DNA of 64,000 nt from an uncultured Alphaproteobacteria bacterium (GTDB lineage Bacteria > Pseudomonadota > Alphaproteobacteria > Sphingomonadales > Sphingomonadaceae), in NCBI GenBank assembly GCA_963750385.1, contig CAVVQJ010000003.1, forward strand, positions 16,831 through 80,830, written 5' to 3'. Below are positions 6,387-19,595 of the stretch, piece after piece. A model generated the notes under the pieces. That model saw nothing but the letters and a program-made list of their open reading frames with translations, had not been told where the DNA came from and did not search any database. Every line of letters starts with the position of its first letter. The stretch's first letter is position 1. The position numbers were made by a program, and so were the translations under genes.

Positions 6387-10557
<4,171 letters not shown>

Positions 10558-10825: not shown

Positions 10826-11065
10826 CTACATGCTGTTGGCAGTGCCCATGTCGTTCGACATGTTCATATCATCGGACATATTCATATCGTTCGACATGTT
10901 CATGTCATTCATGCCCATATCGTTGGTCATGCCCATGTCATTCGACATGCCCATATCATTGGTCATGTCCAAGTCGTTGTTGGCCGTTTCGTTGCCGGAG
11001 CAGGCGCCGAGCGCGATGGCGGAGGCAGCAACCAGCGTCGTGGCGGCGAGTGACAAACGTTTCAT
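10826..11065 (-). CDS. small Met/Asn/Asp-rich repeat lipoprotein, (NDMxMS)n
   Basis: 79 aa: MKRLSLAATTLVAASAIALGACSGNETANNDLDMTNDMGMSNDMGMTNDMGMNDMNMSNDMNMSDDMNMSNDMGTANSM. It has a lipobox LGAC, and AGGAGA lies 6-11 nt upstream of the ATG at 11065. Confidence 0.7.
   Translation of the reverse strand: MKRLSLAATTLVAASAIALGACSGNETANNDLDMTNDMGMSNDMGMTNDMGMNDMNMSNDMNMSDDMNMSNDMGTANSM
10844..10975 (-). repeat. in-frame tandem 18-nt coding repeat (about 7 units, one of them 15 nt)
   Basis: Degenerate unit AAC GAC ATG GGC/AAC ATG TCG/ACC, visible directly in the DNA and the protein. Confidence 0.8.
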
Positions 11066-12546: not shown

Positions 12547-12921
12547 TTACTTGAGCTCGACGGTGCCGCCGGCTTCCTCGATCTGCTTCTTGATCTTCTC
12601 GGCCTCTTCCTTGTTGACGCCTTCCTTGACGGCCTTCGGAGCGCCTTCGACGAGCGCCTTGGCTTCGCCGAGGCCCAGGCCGGTGATGGCGCGGACTTCC
12701 TTGATGACGTTGATCTTCTTGCCACCGTCGCCGGTGAGGATCACGTCGAACTCGCTCTGCTCTTCAGCGGCTGGGCCCGCGGCGGCGGCGGCCGGGCCGG
12801 CAACGGCGACGGCAGCGGCGGCCGAAACGCCCCACTTCTCTTCGAGCAGCTTCGCCAGTTCGGCGGCTTCGAGAACGCTCAGCTCGGAAAGCTGATCAAC
12901 AATCTTGTTAAGGTCTGCCAT
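12547..12921 (-). CDS. rplL: 50S ribosomal protein L7/L12
   Basis: [33 protein letters not shown]...EAGGTVELK, with AAGGAG upstream of the ATG at 12921. Confidence 0.97.
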
Positions 12922-12978
12922 TTCAAACTCCTTGCGGGGACACAGCCCCAATGTCGTGCGATAAATTCTTTGCGAAAA

Positions 12979-13492
12979 TCAGGCTGCCTTGGCGGCGTAC
13001 GCCCCGGTCACGCGGGCCAAAAGGCTCGCGGGCTCGATGGCGATGCGCGCAAGCTTGGTGGCGGGCGCCTGGATGAGCCCAACCAACGTACCGCGCAGCT
13101 GATCGAGCGACGGAAGCGCGGCCAAGGCCTTGATCCCGTTCAGGTCGAGCAGCGTGTCGCCCATTGCGCCGCCAACGATCTCGAGACGATCGTTGGTCTT
13201 GGCGAACTCCACCGCGACCTTTGCGGCCGCGACGGGGTCGGTCGAGGTGGCCAAAGCGGTCGGGCCGGTCAGCATGTCGCCGATCGGTCCGTACTTCGTG
13301 CCCTCGAGCGCAATCAGGGCAAGCCGGTTCTTCGCAACTTTGAACTGGGCGCCGGCGTCGCGCATCTTCAGGCGCAAGTCGGTCGACTGGGCGACCGACA
13401 GGCCGAGATTGCGGGTGATCAACCACCACGCTGGTCTCGGTGAAGACGTTCTTCAGCTCGGCAACCAGATCGGCTTTTTGCGAACGATCCAT
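12979..13492 (-). CDS. rplJ: 50S ribosomal protein L10 (one frameshift near 13422)
   Basis: The N-terminus [24 protein letters not shown] lies in the frame of ORF 12923..13567. The rest, [16 protein letters not shown]...AYAAKAA, lies in ORF 12979..13422. Confidence 0.9.
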
Positions 13493-13700
13493 GCCATACT
13501 CCTTATCGGCCGAAGCGAGCTCCGACCGAGGTTCAAACGACCTCGCCGCCGGGTGGCGACGAAGCAAATTTGTCCGGGGGGATGGATCGGTGGCGAAGCC
13601 GGTAGCGGCATCGCACGACAGGAGCCTTGACGGCGCCGGTCTAATTCATGTCCCCGTCTAGGCCGCGAATTAAGCTCCAAAGTGAATCTGGGGCAGCGAC
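13493..13700 (-). promoter_or_regulatory. possible L10 (rplJL) autoregulatory leader
   Basis: About 290 nt of untranslated region lies upstream of rplJ with GC-rich pairing potential. This rests only on position and on knowledge that L10-L12 binds its own leader. I did not verify the structure. Confidence 0.25.
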
Positions 13701-13784: not shown

Positions 13785-14171
13785 CTAGCGCACGACGATC
13801 GTGCCTTTCATGCCGAAGGTCTTGTGGAAGGGGTGGGAACATTTGAGTTTGTAATGGCCTGCTCGCGGGGCGGTAAGCTGAACCTCCCGGACCTGATGGC
13901 CTGGCACTTCAACCTCTCCTTCCATGACCATTGCCCGGTCTCGCGGCGCGATGGCCGATCCGGCGAAGAATTCGGACGCAGTGAAATCATGTCCGCCGCC
14001 GCCGTCATTGACGAGTCGCAGCACATAGGGCCGACCATGGTCGAGCACGATCGATTGAGGCGTAAAGCGGAAGTTGGACAGGTGAATCTCGAGGACCGTC
14101 GGGGCCTGCGCCGTCGCGCTCGGGCCGCCGATCAATATTAATGGCAATGCCAGTAGTTGGGCCATACGCAT
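13785..14171 (-). CDS. secreted cupredoxin-fold (plastocyanin/amicyanin-like) copper protein
   Basis: 128 aa with signal peptide MRMAQLLALPLILIGGPSATAQA. It has HDF...KLKCSHPFHKTFGM, a type-1 copper-like H...C..H....M ligand pattern. Confidence 0.7.
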   Translation of the reverse strand: MRMAQLLALPLILIGGPSATAQAPTVLEIHLSNFRFTPQSIVLDHGRPYVLRLVNDGGGGHDFTASEFFAGSAIAPRDRAMVMEGEVEVPGHQVREVQLTAPRAGHYKLKCSHPFHKTFGMKGTIVVR

Positions 14172-14304
14172 GGGCTTGCGCTCCTTTGCCGACCCTGCGG
14201 ACTCGCAGCAGTCAGACGAATAACGTTCCTGGCACCCGGCCGGTTGCTTGACAAAGTGGTCGGGGAGGTGCCCCTTTCAGCGCTTGTTAGCGAGGGGGTT
14301 GGCG

Positions 14305-15360
14305 ATGGTGCGGCCGTTGGTTTGGCCTTTCCTGGCTTTCGCGGTGGCGTTGCTTTCGGGGCTCGCTCCGGCGCGCGCAGCCGAGCCGTCCCGGATTGTA
14401 GCGGTCGGCGATCTTCACGGCGATCACGATGCCTGGATCGCGATTGCGCGTTCGGCCGGTCTGATCAACCGCCAGGGGAAATGGACGGGCGGCCGGGCCA
14501 TTTTCGTCCAGCTTGGCGACGTCGTCGACCGTGAGCCGGACAGTCTCAAGATCATTCGCGATCTCATGCGCCTTCAGCGCGAAGCTGCCCGCCAGGGCGG
14601 GAGGGTTGTGACCCTGGTCGGCAATCATGAGGCGATGAACATGACGAATGACCTTCGTTATGTTCATCCTGGCGAATTCGCCGCTTTCGCCGATCGCAAT
14701 TCGGAACGGCGGCGCGAGCTGGTTTATCAAGCCAATAAAAAGACGATCGAGGATGCCTACCATGTTCGGGACCCTGCGAAGTCGCCGACGGCGATCCATG
14801 ACGAGTGGATCAAGGCCACCCCGCTCGGCAAGGTAGAACATCAGGCGGCCTGGCTGCCGGACGGTGAGATTGGCCGTTGGGTCGTCGGCAACCCGGCGGT
14901 GGTCAAGATCGGCGATACGCTATTCGTGCACGGCGGGATCAGCGCCGCATATGCGACCATGCCGATCGACGAGATTAATCGACGCATCGCCGAAGCGCTC
15001 AAGGCAAGAGACGAAACGCCAACCGCGATCATCAACGATCCGCGCGGCCCGCTCTGGTATCGCGGCCTCATTACCCGCTCGGGGTCCGATGAAACCATGA
15101 TGGCGCCGCCGACGCCAAGCGCCGCGGTGCCGGCGCTGAGCATCGACCAGGAAATCGACCTGGTTCTTCGCTCCTATGCAGTGAAGCGGATCGTCGTCGG
15201 TCACACCCCCGCTCTGTCGGGAATCGTGTCCGCATCCAATGGTCATCTATGGCGCGCCGATAGCGGCAATAGCCGCGCCTATGGCGGCGTACCCTCCTAT
15301 CTCGAAATCATGGGCGACCGGGCGGTTGCGCACAGCGTGCCCCGGCCCGGGGGATCATAA
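14305..15360 (+). CDS. secreted calcineurin-like metallophosphoesterase
   Basis: VAVGDLHGDHDAW...QLGDVVDREPDS...LVGNHEAMN...VHGG...GHTP motifs, with signal peptide MVRPLVWPFLAFAVALLSGLAPARA. The start could instead be at 14248. Confidence 0.85.
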   Translation: MVRPLVWPFLAFAVALLSGLAPARAAEPSRIVAVGDLHGDHDAWIAIARSAGLINRQGKWTGGRAIFVQLGDVVDREPDSLKIIRDLMRLQREAARQGGRVVTLVGNHEAMNMTNDLRYVHPGEFAAFADRNSERRRELVYQANKKTIEDAYHVRDPAKSPTAIHDEWIKATPLGKVEHQAAWLPDGEIGRWVVGNPAVVKIGDTLFVHGGISAAYATMPIDEINRRIAEALKARDETPTAIINDPRGPLWYRGLITRSGSDETMMAPPTPSAAVPALSIDQEIDLVLRSYAVKRIVVGHTPALSGIVSASNGHLWRADSGNSRAYGGVPSYLEIMGDRAVAHSVPRPGGS

Positions 15361-15372
15361 AGGGAGGCGGCG

Positions 15373-16404
15373 ATGAGATATTTGATGGGGGCAGCCCTAT
15401 GCCTTGTGGCTGCGCCGGCGGCGGAAGCTGCGGCCCCGCCAACGCCTCTGTTCGCCAGCGATGCGCCAATCGAGATGACCATTAGCGGACCGATATCTTC
15501 CCTTGCCCGGGGCGCGGAGCAATCGACCGCGCCGCGCGAGGCGACGCTGGCGCTCGCCGGGTCGCCCGAAGTTCATGCAATTCGTCTTTCGCCGCGCGGA
15601 CTTGCTCGCCGCCGAAAGGAGACCTGCGACTTTCCGCCATTGCGCGTTGAGCTTGCCCAGCCGGCCCCGGCGGCTTCGCTGTTAGCCGGGCAGCGGCGGA
15701 TGAAGCTTGTCACCCATTGCCGCGGGTCGGCGGGATTCCAGCAGTATCTGCTGCTGGAATATGCAGCATACCGCATCTTCAACCTGCTCAGCCCGACCAG
15801 CTACCGAGCGCGGCTCGCGACCATCAACTATGTTGAACCGAACGGACGCAATTTGACCACGCGCCTCGGCTTTTTCATCGAAGACACAGCTGATGTCGCG
15901 CGCCGCAATGGCCTGAGGCAGGCCGTGGTTGGCGATAGAATACCCTCCCAGCAGCTGGAGGCACGGCAGGCGGCCAGGGTCGCCTTGTTCCAATATATGA
16001 TCGGCAACCTCGACTGGTCGATGCGGGCCGGACCGGCGGGTGAAGGCTGCTGCCACAACGCCCGCCTGCTGGCCGGCGCTGGCGGCGCGATGGTCCCGAT
16101 ACCCTATGATTTCGACTATTCGGGCCTAGTCGATGCTCCTTACGCGGTACCGCCCGAGCAGTTTAAAATCAGGAGCGTTCGAAGTCGCGTGTACCAGGGC
16201 TTCTGCCGCCACAATGGCGCGGCGATCGCGGTAGCCGCCGAATTTCGGGGCCAGCGGCCGGCGATCGAGGCGCTGTTCAGCCAGATCCCGTCGATGGAGG
16301 AGCGGACGCGCGCCAAGGCGCTGTCGTTCCTTTCGCGTTTCTTCGAGGAGATCGCGACCGATCAATCGGTCCAGAGCCGAATTCTCACCAAATGCATGGG
16401 CTAG
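15373..16404 (+). CDS. secreted conserved hypothetical; possible CotH-like atypical kinase fold
   Basis: 343 aa with a signal peptide and high GC3. The motifs MIGNLDWS, CCHNARLL and VPIPYDFDYSGL resemble the GNxD / HN / PWDxD pattern I recall for CotH. This is a motif-level resemblance only. The gene starts 12 nt after the phosphoesterase gene. Confidence 0.6.
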   Translation: MRYLMGAALCLVAAPAAEAAAPPTPLFASDAPIEMTISGPISSLARGAEQSTAPREATLALAGSPEVHAIRLSPRGLARRRKETCDFPPLRVELAQPAPAASLLAGQRRMKLVTHCRGSAGFQQYLLLEYAAYRIFNLLSPTSYRARLATINYVEPNGRNLTTRLGFFIEDTADVARRNGLRQAVVGDRIPSQQLEARQAARVALFQYMIGNLDWSMRAGPAGEGCCHNARLLAGAGGAMVPIPYDFDYSGLVDAPYAVPPEQFKIRSVRSRVYQGFCRHNGAAIAVAAEFRGQRPAIEALFSQIPSMEERTRAKALSFLSRFFEEIATDQSVQSRILTKCMG

Positions 16405-17103
16405 CTAGGCGGCGGGACCTGGCGGCGGCGGCGGGACCACCGGTGGCGTGGCAACAACGCTTCCATCGGCGTCGAAGTCGATCATGTAGCGCTTCATTCC
16501 CTCGCGCTCGCCATATTCGCTGATCCACAACAGCACGAAGCAAAAGTTGAAGCCGACCGACATCACCAGCGCCAGCTCGACCGCGCCGATGCCCGACGCC
16601 AGGCCAATGCCGACCGACAACAGAATGTAGAGCGCGTCGCCCGAGCTCTTGAGGCTGTTCTTGAACCGGACCGCGCCGGCAATTCCGCCCAGCGCGAAGG
16701 CGAGGGCCAGGCTGTGCTGGACGACGATCACGATCGAGGTGACGACGATCGGCAGGATCAGGATCGAGCTGATCAGCGACTGGTCATACTCCTCGGCCGA
16801 GCGGGTCGCCATATAGACCCAACTGACGGGAAGAGCGGTGACCAGGGCGCCCGTGATGGCCGTCGCCAGCCAACCGATGCTTTGACCCAGCGTCTTGACC
16901 GACTCCCCTTCGACGACGGCTTGCAGGGCATTGCTCTTGCCCGACGGATTGATCAGCTCTTCCGCGCCGCCGATCGGCAGGTAAACTCGAAATTCCGGAA
17001 AGGTCCGAAGGGTTAGCCATACGATCGCGAACAGCGCGACATAATAGACGATGAGTTGCACAATTAGTCGTGATGCTCGCATGGCCTGTTTCCCCCTGGG
17101 CAT
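16405..17103 (-). CDS. DUF4956-like integral membrane protein
   Basis: 232 aa with 4-5 TM segments. The GAVRFKNSLKSSGDALYILLSVGIGLASGIG core resembles the DUF4956 signature (RFRT...D..Y.F..I..G...G). The C-terminal tail is proline-rich. Confidence 0.55.
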   Translation of the reverse strand: MPRGKQAMRASRLIVQLIVYYVALFAIVWLTLRTFPEFRVYLPIGGAEELINPSGKSNALQAVVEGESVKTLGQSIGWLATAITGALVTALPVSWVYMATRSAEEYDQSLISSILILPIVVTSIVIVVQHSLALAFALGGIAGAVRFKNSLKSSGDALYILLSVGIGLASGIGAVELALVMSVGFNFCFVLLWISEYGEREGMKRYMIDFDADGSVVATPPVVPPPPPGPAA

Positions 17104-17151
17104 GATGGAGCGATATGACGGAAAGCTACGGCATTTCGCCGCAATGGCAAG

Positions 17152-17979
17152 CTAGTCGGGGATTGCGCGCTGGTAAGGGGGAATCGGCTGCAGCACGGTG
17201 TAGCGCTCCTTCATCGGCGGGGTTGGGATGGGCGGCCAGGGAATATCGGTAATCGGCAGATTCGTGTCCGGCAGCCTGTCGAGAAAATCGCGCAGCAAGG
17301 TAAGCCGTCCGATCGGCTGGTCATTGAAGTCGATGAGCGTCCAAGGTGCCCAGTCGGTATGGGTCGCAGCAAGCATCTGTTCGCGCGCGTCAGTGTAGGC
17401 CTCGTAGCGGGTACGTGATTCGATATCGATAGGGGAAAGCTTCCAACGTCGCCTGGGGTTTTGGAGCCGGTTCTGGAAGCGCTCCTCCTGCTTGTCCTGG
17501 TCGACGCACAGCCAATATTTGAACAGGAAAATGCCGTCGTCGACCAGGTGCCGCTCAAACTCTGGCGCCGCTTTCAGGAAAGCTGCCGTATCGGCTTCGC
17601 TGCAATAGCCCATCACCTTTTCGACGCCGGCGCGGTTGTACCAGCTGCGGTCGAACAGCGTCAGTTCGCCCCGGGTCGGCAGATGCTCCATGTAGCGCTG
17701 GAAATACCATTGGCCGCTTTCGCGCTCCGACGGGGCGGCGAGGGCGACAACCTTGCATTGGCGCGGATTGAGCGTTCGGGAGAAGACATCGATCGAACCG
17801 CCCTTGCCGGCGGTGTCGCGGCCCTCGAACACGATGACAACCCGCTGGTTGGTTTCCTGGATCCAGCGCGCTGCGTCGCTCAGTTCCTTGGTGAGCGGCT
17901 TGAGCAGCTCTTCATACTGGTCCCAGCTCAGTACCGACGTTCCGCTCATGCTCGCACTCCCAGCGGCGGAGAGTGGCAT
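17152..17979 (-). CDS. ppk2: polyphosphate kinase 2 (PPK2)
   Basis: [16 protein letters not shown] (Walker A), [23 protein letters not shown]. Classic single-domain PPK2. Confidence 0.9.
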
Positions 17980-18000
17980 TGTGAAGGCGGCGAGACAAGA

Positions 18001-18026
18001 AGGGCCGATGCTTTCGCACCGGCCCT
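18001..18026 (-). terminator. possible terminator after rplA
   Basis: Hairpin AGGGCCG-atgctttcgcac-CGGCCCT. In minus orientation it is followed by TCTTGTCT, a weak T tract. Confidence 0.4.
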
Positions 18027-18053: not shown

Positions 18054-18752
18054 TCAGGCGCCGGCGACTTCGGCCGTGTCGATCTTGACGCCGGGGCCCA
18101 TCGAAGAACTCAGCGAGACCTTCTTGACGAACTTGCCCTTGGCACCGGTCGGCTTTGCCTTGACGATGGCGTCGACGAAGGCATCGAAATTCGCCTTGAG
18201 GTCGCCCTCGGGGAAGCTCGCCTTGCCGATGCCGGCGTGGATGATCCCCGCCTTCTCAACCCGGAACTCGACCTGGCCGGACTTGGCATCCTTGACCGCC
18301 TGGCCGACGTTCGGGGTGACCGTGCCCAGCTTCGGGTTGGGCATCAGGCCCTTGGGGCCCAGTACCTTGCCGAGGCGTCCGACGACGCCCATCATGTCGG
18401 GCGTGGCGATGACCCGATCGAAGTCCGATTGGCCGCCCTGAATGGCTTCCATCAAATCCTCGGCACCGACGATCTCTGCGCCCGCCTTCTTGGCTTCCTC
18501 GGCCTTGTCGCCGCGCGCGAATACCGCGACGCGGACGTCCTTGCCGGTGCCCTTGGGCAGGTTGACGACGCCGCGGACCATCTGGTCGGCGTGGCGCGGG
18601 TCGACACCCAGGTTGATCGCGACCTCGACGGTCTCATCGAACTTGGAAGTCGCAAGCGACTTTACCAGCCCAATTGCCTCATCGACGGCATAGAGCTTCA
18701 TCGGCTCGACCTTGCCCTCGAGGGCCTTCTGCTTCTTGGTCAGCTTGGCCAT
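18054..18752 (-). CDS. rplA: 50S ribosomal protein L1
   Basis: [21 protein letters not shown]...[13 protein letters not shown]... Confidence 0.97.
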
Positions 18753-18756
18753 CGGA

Positions 18757-19188
18757 TCAGCCCTCCACAACTTGAAGGCCCATCGCGCGAGCGGAGCCTT
18801 CGATAATCTTCGTCGCGGCCTCGATGTCGTTGGCGTTGAGATCCTTCATCTTGGCCTCGGCGATCTGGGCCAGCTGCGAGCGGCGGATTGTTCCGGCCGA
18901 AACCTTGCCCGGCTCCTTCGAGCCCGACTTGAGCTTGGCGGCCTTCTTCAAGAGGAAGCTCGCCGGCGGCGTCTTGGTGGTGAAGGAGAAGCTGCGGTCC
19001 GCATAGACGGTGATCACCGTCGGGATCGGCGCGGCCTTTTCAAGGTCCTGCGTCGCGGCGTTGAACGCCTTGCAGAATTCCATGATGTTGACGCCGCGCT
19101 GACCCAGCGCGGGGCCGATCGGCGGAGAGGGATTGGCGATGCCAGCGGGCACCTGGAGCTTGATGTAGCCCGTAATTTTCTTTGCCAT
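18757..19188 (-). CDS. rplK: 50S ribosomal protein L11
   Basis: [43 protein letters not shown]... Confidence 0.97.
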
Positions 19189-19595
19189 TTTTCTCACTCT
19201 GTAGTGGGTCGCGGCAAAGCCGCTTCCCGTTCAAGTTTAGCGGTCCAGACGGACGCCCGAAGGCGGCCTCCCGCAATCCAAACATATTGTCGGAAGCGCG
19301 GGCCTTTAACAGAAAGCCTCTCAAGTTCAAGTCTTGGCTGGCAGTCCAGGGCCGCGTTCGATGAGCGACGACGTGCCGGAACCAGGTCGCGGCGTAAACG
19401 AGATGGCATGCAACTTTGCGATCCTCGGCCCGCGTCCAATTTCATGGGCTGACCTTTGCGCGGGCGAGGGGACTTAGGACTAAGATTTTCTAGCTGACCC
19501 AGGGAAAATCGGGGTGAGGTATTAGGGGTTTGGGGCTGGTGGCTGAACCTTGGCGTTCCGCTGGCGTTGATAGCGCGATCGAACCGGAGGTAGGC

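Follow-up and report, generated by a model that had tools for sequence, protein, structure and literature searches.

What are a polyphosphate kinase, a polytopic membrane protein and a set of apparently exported proteins doing in the middle of a ribosomal-protein gene cluster, and do they belong together? The question is raised by a stretch of 64,000 nucleotides (the window) from an uncultured member of the Sphingomonadaceae (GenBank assembly GCA_963750385.1, contig CAVVQJ010000003.1, positions 16,831 to 80,830 of the forward strand). Five intact open reading frames (ORFs) lie here between rplJ and rplA, flanked by rplJ/rplL on one side and by rplA/rplK on the other, and they encode a cupredoxin, a Metallophos phosphatase, a 343-residue protein, a DUF4956 membrane protein and a polyphosphate kinase of the PPK2 family. 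An earlier reading of the letters and their ORFs, here called the sequence-only reading, had proposed that the last four form a polyphosphate-linked accessory module to which the cupredoxin possibly belongs. Our results point to a conserved and portable four-gene envelope module, an alphaproteobacterial counterpart of the VTC–DUF4956–CotH trio of Gram-positive bacteria, in which DUF4956 would pass polyphosphate or its phosphoryl groups to enzymes outside the membrane; we give this reading a probability of about one half. Two observations underlying it are robust: DUF4956 is joined, by fusion or by adjacency, to polyphosphate enzymes of three unrelated kinds (PPK2, PPK1 and, in the literature, VTC), and it is found repeatedly with extracytoplasmic CotH-fold proteins and phosphoesterases.

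Proteins encoded by the module

The four genes form two pairs that face each other. On the plus strand, the phosphatase gene (14305-15360) is followed after a gap of 12 nt by the gene of the 343-residue protein (15373-16404); on the minus strand, the PPK2 ORF (17152-17979, 275 aa) and the DUF4956 ORF (16405-17103, 232 aa) are co-directional and 48 nt apart. The pairs converge with zero gap, the stop codons of the 343-residue protein and of DUF4956 abutting at 16404/16405. The ORF list reproduces exactly the five frames and the spacings on which the sequence-only reading was built. The likely starts of PPK2 and DUF4956 are nevertheless further downstream, at 17949 and 17082, because of the homologue alignments, a gene call of 225 aa in the protein collection, and the position of the ATG at 17979 within a conserved upstream element; with these revised starts (genes at 17152-17949 and 16405-17082) the spacing becomes 69 nt. 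The phosphatase ORF reaches back to 14248, though its homologues align from 14305.

PPK2 matches the Pfam model PF03976 with 284.6 bits (cutoff 22.3) and the class I equivalog model TIGR03707 with 320.5 bits (cutoff 301.8), and the class II and class III models stay under their cutoffs. Its nearest solved structures, 3czp, 5ll0 and 3czq (E 1e-77 to 4e-69), are class I and class II PPK2 enzymes, and the 265-residue protein carries the Walker A motif GRDTAGKG at residue 43 and the Walker B/lid motif DRSWY at residue 100. Both its motifs and its equivalog-level score are shared with class I PPK2 enzymes such as those of the P. aeruginosa PA0141 type, of S. meliloti (3czq) and of F. tularensis (5ll0), and it is a cytoplasmic class I polyphosphate kinase, predicted to phosphorylate nucleoside diphosphates at the expense of polyphosphate. 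It differs from these enzymes in its constant pairing with DUF4956, which on one contig amounts to a fusion; we did not find such a pairing described for the characterised PPK2 proteins.

The membrane protein had been called DUF4956-like from its sequence, and it is indeed a DUF4956 protein, scoring 36.5 bits with PF16316 against a gathering threshold of 30.6; the same domain is precomputed on 120 of 120 close homologues. The AlphaFold2 (AF2) model (pLDDT 78.7) has six long helices, and hydrophobic segments are seen in the hydropathy profile. Basic residues are grouped at the N-terminus, in the loop between transmembrane helices 4 and 5, where the family motif VRF(K/R)N.LK is located, and in the C-terminal tail, and this distribution suggests that both termini are cytoplasmic. 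The fusions described below agree with this topology, as an N-terminal PPK2 and a C-terminal PPK1 would both be placed in the cytoplasm. In a Foldseek search of the PDB the model had no significant match (the best, TolQ/ExbB, at E 0.8) and no VTC entry was listed, for which reason homology between DUF4956 and the membrane domain of VTC was rejected. DUF4956 is the best conserved protein of the set (close relatives share 88-92% identity in it, and about 70-77% in the 343-residue protein), and it is the hub of the module. Many DUF4956 proteins of 330-390 aa (P0273 and P0281, for example) are extended at the C-terminus by about 150 aa that match nothing in Pfam; a streptococcal homologue has been reported with a C-terminal ACT domain (PMC12345266). 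A tblastn search of PLSDB for plasmid carriage of DUF4956 gave no match.

The 343-residue protein has no Pfam, NCBIfam or PDB match by sequence, either with phmmer or with profile searches. The Pfam CotH model (PF08757) does not match the window protein at E≤0.1 or two of its homologues at E≤1, family profiles run against PDB sequences fail to reach CotH, and hhalign of the family alignment against the single Bacillus cereus CotH sequence, recovered from a PDB alignment, gives a weak E of 0.095 over 29 columns. For the AF2 model built from 47 homologues (pLDDT 77, pTM 0.80), however, Foldseek places B. cereus CotH first (5jd9/5jda; E 2e-10, probability 1.0, TM-score 0.55-0.57), followed by the lipid kinases PI4K, PI3K and Vps34. 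The earlier suggestion of a secreted CotH-like protein therefore stands by fold and fails by the Pfam CotH model.

Short motifs lead in the same direction as the fold. Among 15 family members, down to 36% identity, the invariant residues are K111, E129, N212-x-D214-W, H228-N229, Y245-D-F-D248-x-S-G and four cysteines. The CotH core motifs NFDGFVHN and IPWDYDATWG correspond to NLD214WS…H228N229 and PYD246FD248YSG of the window protein, and an N-terminal RG..R motif is common to both; the first catalytic Asp, which MAFFT did not align, was paired by inspection of the motifs. In B. subtilis CotH the substitutions D228Q and D251A are catalytically dead (PMC7821199), and these two residues fall in NYDGF and PWDYD, whose equivalents are invariant in the CotH-like family. 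The two proteins thus share the patterns N-x-D…H-N and P-[WY]-D-[YF]-D, whereas their identity is only about 13%, and in the CotH-like protein an insertion separates the catalytic Asp from the HN motif; the protein also has a putative signal peptide, four conserved cysteines, and hosts that are Gram-negative and do not sporulate. We consider it a diverged enzyme of the CotH fold whose active site is apparently intact and for which kinase activity is predicted; it lies outside PF08757 as now defined. Its homologous clusters number more than 3,500, all unnamed and without Pfam domains, so that the CotH-like assignment defines a large family which the domain databases have left blank.

The phosphatase (PF00149, 49.6 bits) is placed in the Shelph branch of the PPP phosphatases because its closest structures are the Shewanella cold-active phosphatase/protein-tyrosine phosphatase entries 1v73 and 2z72, together with 2zbm (E 4e-24). 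The metal-binding motifs GDLHG, GDVVDR, GNHE, HGG and GH are intact and are the same as in the Shewanella enzyme, from which the window protein differs in that its gene shares an operon with that of a kinase-fold protein. The phosphatase starts with a hydrophobic stretch that ends in ARA|AE, and hydrophobic, AxA-terminated N-termini are likewise present in the CotH-like protein and in the cupredoxin. By these putative signal peptides all three proteins are apparently secreted or otherwise extracytoplasmic, a location that the conserved cysteines of the CotH-like protein also fit.

Conservation and architectures of the module

The same five genes are found between rplJ and rplA on four metagenome contigs of Sphingomicrobium (L001-L004), in which the genes between rplK and nusG vary from contig to contig. 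Searching 1.84 billion representative proteins for DUF4956 returned 2,015 relatives, and among the best 150 of these three fusions to polyphosphate kinases were detected: PPK2–DUF4956 (P0242, 565 aa), DUF4956–PPK1 (P0348, 941 aa) and DUF4956–CYTH–PPK1 (P0314, 1,317 aa). The P0242 ORF converges on a 342-aa CotH-like gene and a Metallophos gene exactly in the manner of the window, with identities of 64% for PPK2, 53% for DUF4956, 52% for the CotH-like protein and 54% for the phosphatase; the surroundings on this contig (L005) are rich in TIR and TPR proteins and contain neither rpl genes nor a cupredoxin gene. P0242 is a singleton, and the fusion could reflect a lost stop codon, which leaves the adjacency of the two genes beyond doubt. 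The gene of P0314 is preceded and overlapped by a CotH-like gene of 353 aa (L006; 35% identity to the window protein, E 6e-69). In the P0348 cluster, followed through its member P0394, DUF4956–PPK1 lies beside CHAD, histidine phosphatase, a second PPK1 and Ppx-GppA (L007-L009).

Genomes were scanned with a narrower DUF4956 alignment, the 53-sequence alignment being too divergent for this use, and 80 species-level loci were obtained from Sphingomicrobium, Sphingomonas, Allosphingosinicella, Parvularculaceae, Marinicaulis and other proteobacterial metagenome-assembled genomes (MAGs). The search pattern excluded the VRFKN subtype of the window, so that all 80 loci represent a sister subtype with 50-63% identity. 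When neighbours were tallied by tblastn, the complete order PPK2→DUF4956→ ←CotH-like←phosphatase was present in 49 of the 80 loci; 14 had DUF4956, CotH-like and phosphatase genes with no adjacent PPK2, seven had PPK2 and DUF4956 only, one (L088) had PPK1 adjacent in place of PPK2, and nine were truncated by contig ends. In 61 of the 80 loci the gene directly upstream of DUF4956 is PPK2, which bears out the idea that it occupies the place of the polyphosphate enzyme, and DUF4956 adjoins a CotH-like gene in 71. In the 14 loci without PPK2, a gene for a secreted beta-propeller of the SdiA-regulated/phytase-like type is inserted between DUF4956 and the CotH-like gene. Such a propeller gene, overlapping the stop codon of DUF4956, was noted in L079 (8678-9514) and 14 other Marinicaulis/Parvularculaceae loci, as well as in L010, L120, L156, L161 and L174. 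Those loci with PPK2 and DUF4956 only that were examined (e.g. L022) have a Bax1-I gene directly after the pair. None of the 80 genome loci has rplA or rplJ beside the module; the flanks of the non-ribosomal loci are uvrA, Bax1-I, GST and similar genes.

A complementary scan of metagenomes with the CotH-like alignment yielded 80 further loci, 20 of them with ample flanks. In these 20 a phosphatase gene is present 17 times, DUF4956 13 times and PPK2 six times; no other neighbour accompanies the CotH-like gene as constantly as the phosphatase, and the earlier view of it as an addition to the CotH-containing neighbourhood agrees with this count. Modules embedded among rpl genes recur in L092, L096 and L110. 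Other arrangements include co-directional phosphatase→CotH-like genes with a divergent DUF4956 of 20-26 bits in Pfam (L131, L139, L141 and L143), and the order CotH-like→ ←phosphatase←propeller←DUF4956 (L156, L161 and L163). More distant DUF4956 loci include a DUF4956 gene that converges on a CotH-like gene of 38% identity (L172) and DUF4956 with a propeller and Metallophos (L174); a single Marinicaulis DUF4956 stands alone (L173). Another of these distant loci (L171:3075-12660) is a co-directional run and consists of a Metallophos-like protein (348 aa), a barrel-like protein of 255 aa, Exo_endo_phos, DUF4956, Omp85 (869 aa), CYTH–PPK1 (1,049 aa) and PAP2, possibly an envelope-spanning version with an outer-membrane component. 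The recurrence of the block in relatives of the window organism, and of its core in dozens of species and contexts, exceeds chance. Two different four-gene copies were also noted on two contigs (L039 and L052) of one MAG, Sphingomicrobium sp. cluster1_bin.503, which suggests either paralogous modules in one genome or a mixed bin.

Genomic location and neighbouring features

According to the ORF list, the ribosomal genes around the block are all on the minus strand: rplL (12547-12951) and rplJ (12979-13422, its N-terminus continuing to 13492 in another frame) on one side, and rplA (18054-18770) and rplK (18757-19197) on the other. Directly after rplA, on the same strand, there is a strong terminator-like hairpin (18001-18026) with a stem of 11 pairs, eight of them G-C, and a T-rich tail. 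Because of this hairpin the module, situated where the rplKA unit meets the rplJL-rpoBC unit, is probably transcribed independently, and the hairpin would insulate it from the rplKA transcript. Since most module copies are located elsewhere, its insertion at this operon boundary between rplJ and rplA is incidental. A functional tie of the module to the ribosomal operons was considered and rejected on the same two grounds, the location of most modules and the separation of rplA from PPK2 by the hairpin.

Upstream of PPK2 a conserved element was found, GGTTCCAATC-N10-11-[CG]ATGC[CA]A[GC]A, which is present 20-60 nt before the start in 31 of 59 loci (L014-L077, non-ribosomal). The window retains only its second half, CAATGCCACTCTC, at 17969-17981 on the minus strand. 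The element matches neither the EcfG, the Pho-box nor the sigma-54 consensus. Searches for known promoter types gave no signal: Pho-boxes upstream of PPK2 or the phosphatase are not enriched relative to shuffled sequences, the EcfG-type promoter GGAAC-N16-17-CGTT occurs in none of the 59 loci, and a sigma-70 scan remained at background level. A sigma-54-like string near 14230 was discarded owing to its wrong spacing. Rfam models run over 9-23 kb of the window detected tRNA only, and no leader or riboswitch.

The cupredoxin gene (13785-14171, minus strand; an intact ORF, 38.5 bits with Cupredoxin_1, PF13473, and 31 bits with PF00127) is divergent from the phosphatase gene. It had been mentioned as a possible member of the module; the gene is there, and it occurs in L001-L004, L091, L092 and L114, all of the rpl-embedded lineage, and is absent beside the module in the 80 genome loci. 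Since it is confined to this lineage, we do not count it among the core genes. Three kilobases away, at about 10826-11060 on the minus strand between rpoB and a DOPA-dioxygenase-like ORF, a small predicted lipoprotein (MKRLSLAATTLVAASAIALGAC…) consists mostly of Met/Asp/Asn repeats, DMTNDMGMSNDMGMTNDMGMNDMNMSNDMNMSDDMNMSNDMG; the Met-rich repeats suggest that it may bind Cu(I).

Further neighbours were observed in other loci. TIR_2 proteins fused to TPR or WD40/PD40 repeats (L005:5460-9171 and 14033-16015; L135:7638-9833; L141:7798-10065) adjoin the module on three unrelated metagenome contigs, and a TIR protein of 662 aa is located near it in 20 of the 80 genome loci. These neighbours could be ordinary Sphingomonad synteny, or a real association. 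As the PADLOC defence models match none of the five proteins and the TIR neighbours are mostly of this syntenic kind, we rejected the reading of the block as a defence system. In L003 a DUF202 gene (13199-13687) lies between the ribosomal cluster and nusG; PF02656 (DUF202) is presumably the family of the Vtc1 membrane domain, and the adjacency is probably coincidental.

Sequence quality deserves a comment, as the reading frame of rpoB (6390-10557, minus strand) switches at least five times and that of rplJ (12979-13492, minus strand) changes after its first 33 codons. Both genes are essential, and the breaks therefore look like assembly indels, possibly from long reads, and not like pseudogenes; similar errors should be borne in mind when ORF boundaries are taken from other parts of the window. 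Each of the five genes studied here occupies a single frame and is full length in comparison with its homologues.

Relation to known systems

The sequence-only reading had placed DUF4956 genes typically next to VTC-type polymerases and CotH kinases, and such a neighbourhood is on record in streptococci, clostridia and bifidobacteria. Beside Gram-positive pel clusters, the genes of CotH, of a polyphosphate polymerase, of DUF4956 and of DUF4832 adjoin one another as an accessory group (Whitfield et al., 10.1101/768473 / PMC7112168). In S. intermedius the genes are SIR_1592, described as an MgtC-type transmembrane domain with a cytoplasmic ACT domain, SIR_1593, a polyphosphate polymerase, and SIR_1594, a CotH with FN3 that is predicted to be secreted; deletion of SIR_1592 or SIR_1594 lowers Pel levels and Pel-dependent aggregation (PMC12345266). 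In C. perfringens NELoc-2, VTC-domain genes, membrane proteins of 222-226 aa and CotH stand in a row (PMC2879425).

The module of the window resembles this trio in that DUF4956, a polyphosphate enzyme and a predicted secreted CotH-type kinase are encoded together. On the other hand, the polyphosphate enzyme is a class I PPK2 with a P-loop kinase fold instead of a VTC/TTM polymerase (none of the five window proteins matches the VTC domain, and CYTH/TTM domains are confined to the PPK1 fusions of other lineages), the kinase belongs to a divergent family missed by the Pfam CotH model, and a Shelph-type phosphatase is a near-constant fourth member. There is no pel cluster, its place being taken by ribosomal-protein genes or by uvrA, Bax1-I and GST, and in the Gram-negative Alphaproteobacteria that host the module the outside is the periplasm. 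The parent neighbourhood is thus known but uncharacterised, and the version based on PPK2 or PPK1 in Gram-negative bacteria, whose CotH-like kinase is divergent and which includes a Shelph phosphatase, is new. The sequence-only reading had named no characterised example of the combination, and our literature search likewise found nothing on a pairing of PPK2 or PPK1 with DUF4956, on the CotH-like family or on the four genes together; the papers found to mention DUF4956 give it no function.

A second parallel is found in eukaryotes, where VTC couples polyphosphate synthesis to translocation (PMC9911596) and Ppn2 is a luminal endopolyphosphatase of the PPP family in the yeast vacuole (PMC7381174). 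VTC with Ppn1/Ppn2 and the module follow the same logic, with a polyphosphate enzyme on the cytoplasmic side of a membrane protein and a phosphatase of the PPP family across the membrane. However, the catalytic enzymes are different, no relationship of the membrane parts is detectable by sequence or fold, and for DUF4956 translocation is only proposed.

Proposed function and alternative explanations

How could these proteins work together? In the mechanism that we propose, PPK2 would dock on the cytoplasmic face of DUF4956, and DUF4956 would move the polyphosphate chain, or phosphoryl groups, across the inner membrane in a manner like that of eukaryotic VTC. The periplasmic CotH-like enzyme would use this supply to phosphorylate an envelope substrate, and the Shelph phosphatase would reverse the phosphorylation or trim the polymer, as Ppn2 does in the yeast vacuole. 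Within what comparative genomics can show, the results support a putative functional coupling between a polyphosphate enzyme and an envelope pair, which the sequence-only reading had suggested.

Several points weigh against the envelope module as we describe it. Class I PPK2 is thought to run mainly from polyphosphate to nucleoside triphosphate (NTP) in vivo (PMC10657179), a direction that suits polymer export less well than that of VTC or PPK1. The transport role of DUF4956 is one that we infer, and its model matches no solved channel or VTC membrane domain. Likewise, the kinship with CotH is drawn from a predicted structure and short motifs, the Pfam CotH model and the profile searches missing the protein, and the signal peptides were judged by eye only. 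Many of the loci belong to related Sphingomonadaceae that have synteny in common, so that there are fewer independent events than the counts suggest. Finally, the association is not obligatory: 14 of the 80 genome loci are without an adjacent PPK2 and seven without the kinase/phosphatase pair, several CotH-like genes have no DUF4956 nearby, and one rpl-embedded locus (L101) has the phosphatase and CotH-like genes only.

The preferred direction of PPK2 fits a flow into the cell, in which the secreted phosphatase, with the CotH-fold protein to bind or process its substrate, would act on external polyphosphate or organophosphate, DUF4956 would import polyphosphate or phosphate, and PPK2 would turn the imported polymer straight into GTP or ATP. 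Such salvage would also accommodate the recurrence of DUF4956 with secreted phosphoesterases (Metallophos, Exo_endo_phos, PAP2 and phytase-like/SdiA-regulated propellers) and the presence of Omp85 and a porin-like gene in some loci. We nevertheless consider it unlikely, given that the partners of DUF4956 elsewhere, VTC-type polymerases and PPK1, synthesise polyphosphate, that Pho-boxes are not enriched upstream of PPK2 or the phosphatase, and that the catalytic residues of the CotH-like kinase are invariant, which would be needless in a mere binding protein. A role of DUF4956 as a membrane anchor or regulator, as proposed for MgtC-like proteins, is slightly less probable: it would tether or control polyphosphate kinases, perhaps sensing the periplasmic phosphorylation state. 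The fusions and adjacency with PPK1 and PPK2, the cytoplasmic ACT domain and MgtC-type transmembrane part of the streptococcal homologue (PMC12345266), the conserved basic cytoplasmic motif VRF(K/R)N.LK and the lack of a channel-like fold match all speak for such a role, whereas Pfam does not relate the window DUF4956 protein to MgtC, and the phosphoryl donor of the extracytoplasmic kinase would be left without an explanation.

It could also be asked whether the two gene pairs share any function at all, or are neighbours by inheritance. Either pair can occur alone, the pairs are convergent and do not form one operon, and many loci belong to one family with the conserved flanks uvrA…Bax1-I…GST. 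Against this, the pairing recurs across orientations, contexts and polyphosphate enzymes, from the rpl cluster and the uvrA region to L005, L006, L172, L131/L141/L143 and L156/L163, and the Gram-positive trio is a further parallel, which makes mere synteny improbable. The least probable account, in our opinion, is that PPK2 regenerates ATP or GTP from polyphosphate at the membrane and DUF4956 exports nucleotide for an ATP-dependent periplasmic CotH-like kinase. CotH does bind Mg2+/AMP (5jda) and use ATP (PMC7821199), and class I PPK2 makes NTP; yet VTC consumes ATP and cannot make it, so that this account fails to extend to the Gram-positive trio, and 14 of the 80 loci have no adjacent PPK2.

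Returning to the envelope module, a bolder and decidedly tentative form of it, with the odds rather against it, is that DUF4956 is a bacterial polyphosphate translocase, non-homologous to the VTC channel, which would take the polymer from a docked VTC, PPK1 or PPK2; CotH-type kinases would then use polyphosphate and not ATP, and Shelph phosphatases would erase the modification or trim the polymer. If true, this would explain the presence of polyphosphate in the periplasm and on the cell surface, as well as the fuelling of extracytoplasmic kinases.

What does the locus mean for the organism and for the family? The location in the ribosomal cluster is not functionally meaningful. The module itself links the Gram-positive trio associated with pel, which has an aggregation phenotype, to a Gram-negative counterpart. 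Polyphosphate is a large polyanion, and ATP is scarce outside the cytoplasmic membrane. Two questions meet here, namely how polyphosphate exits the cytoplasm and what fuels the kinase-fold proteins outside the membrane, and DUF4956 is a testable candidate for both.

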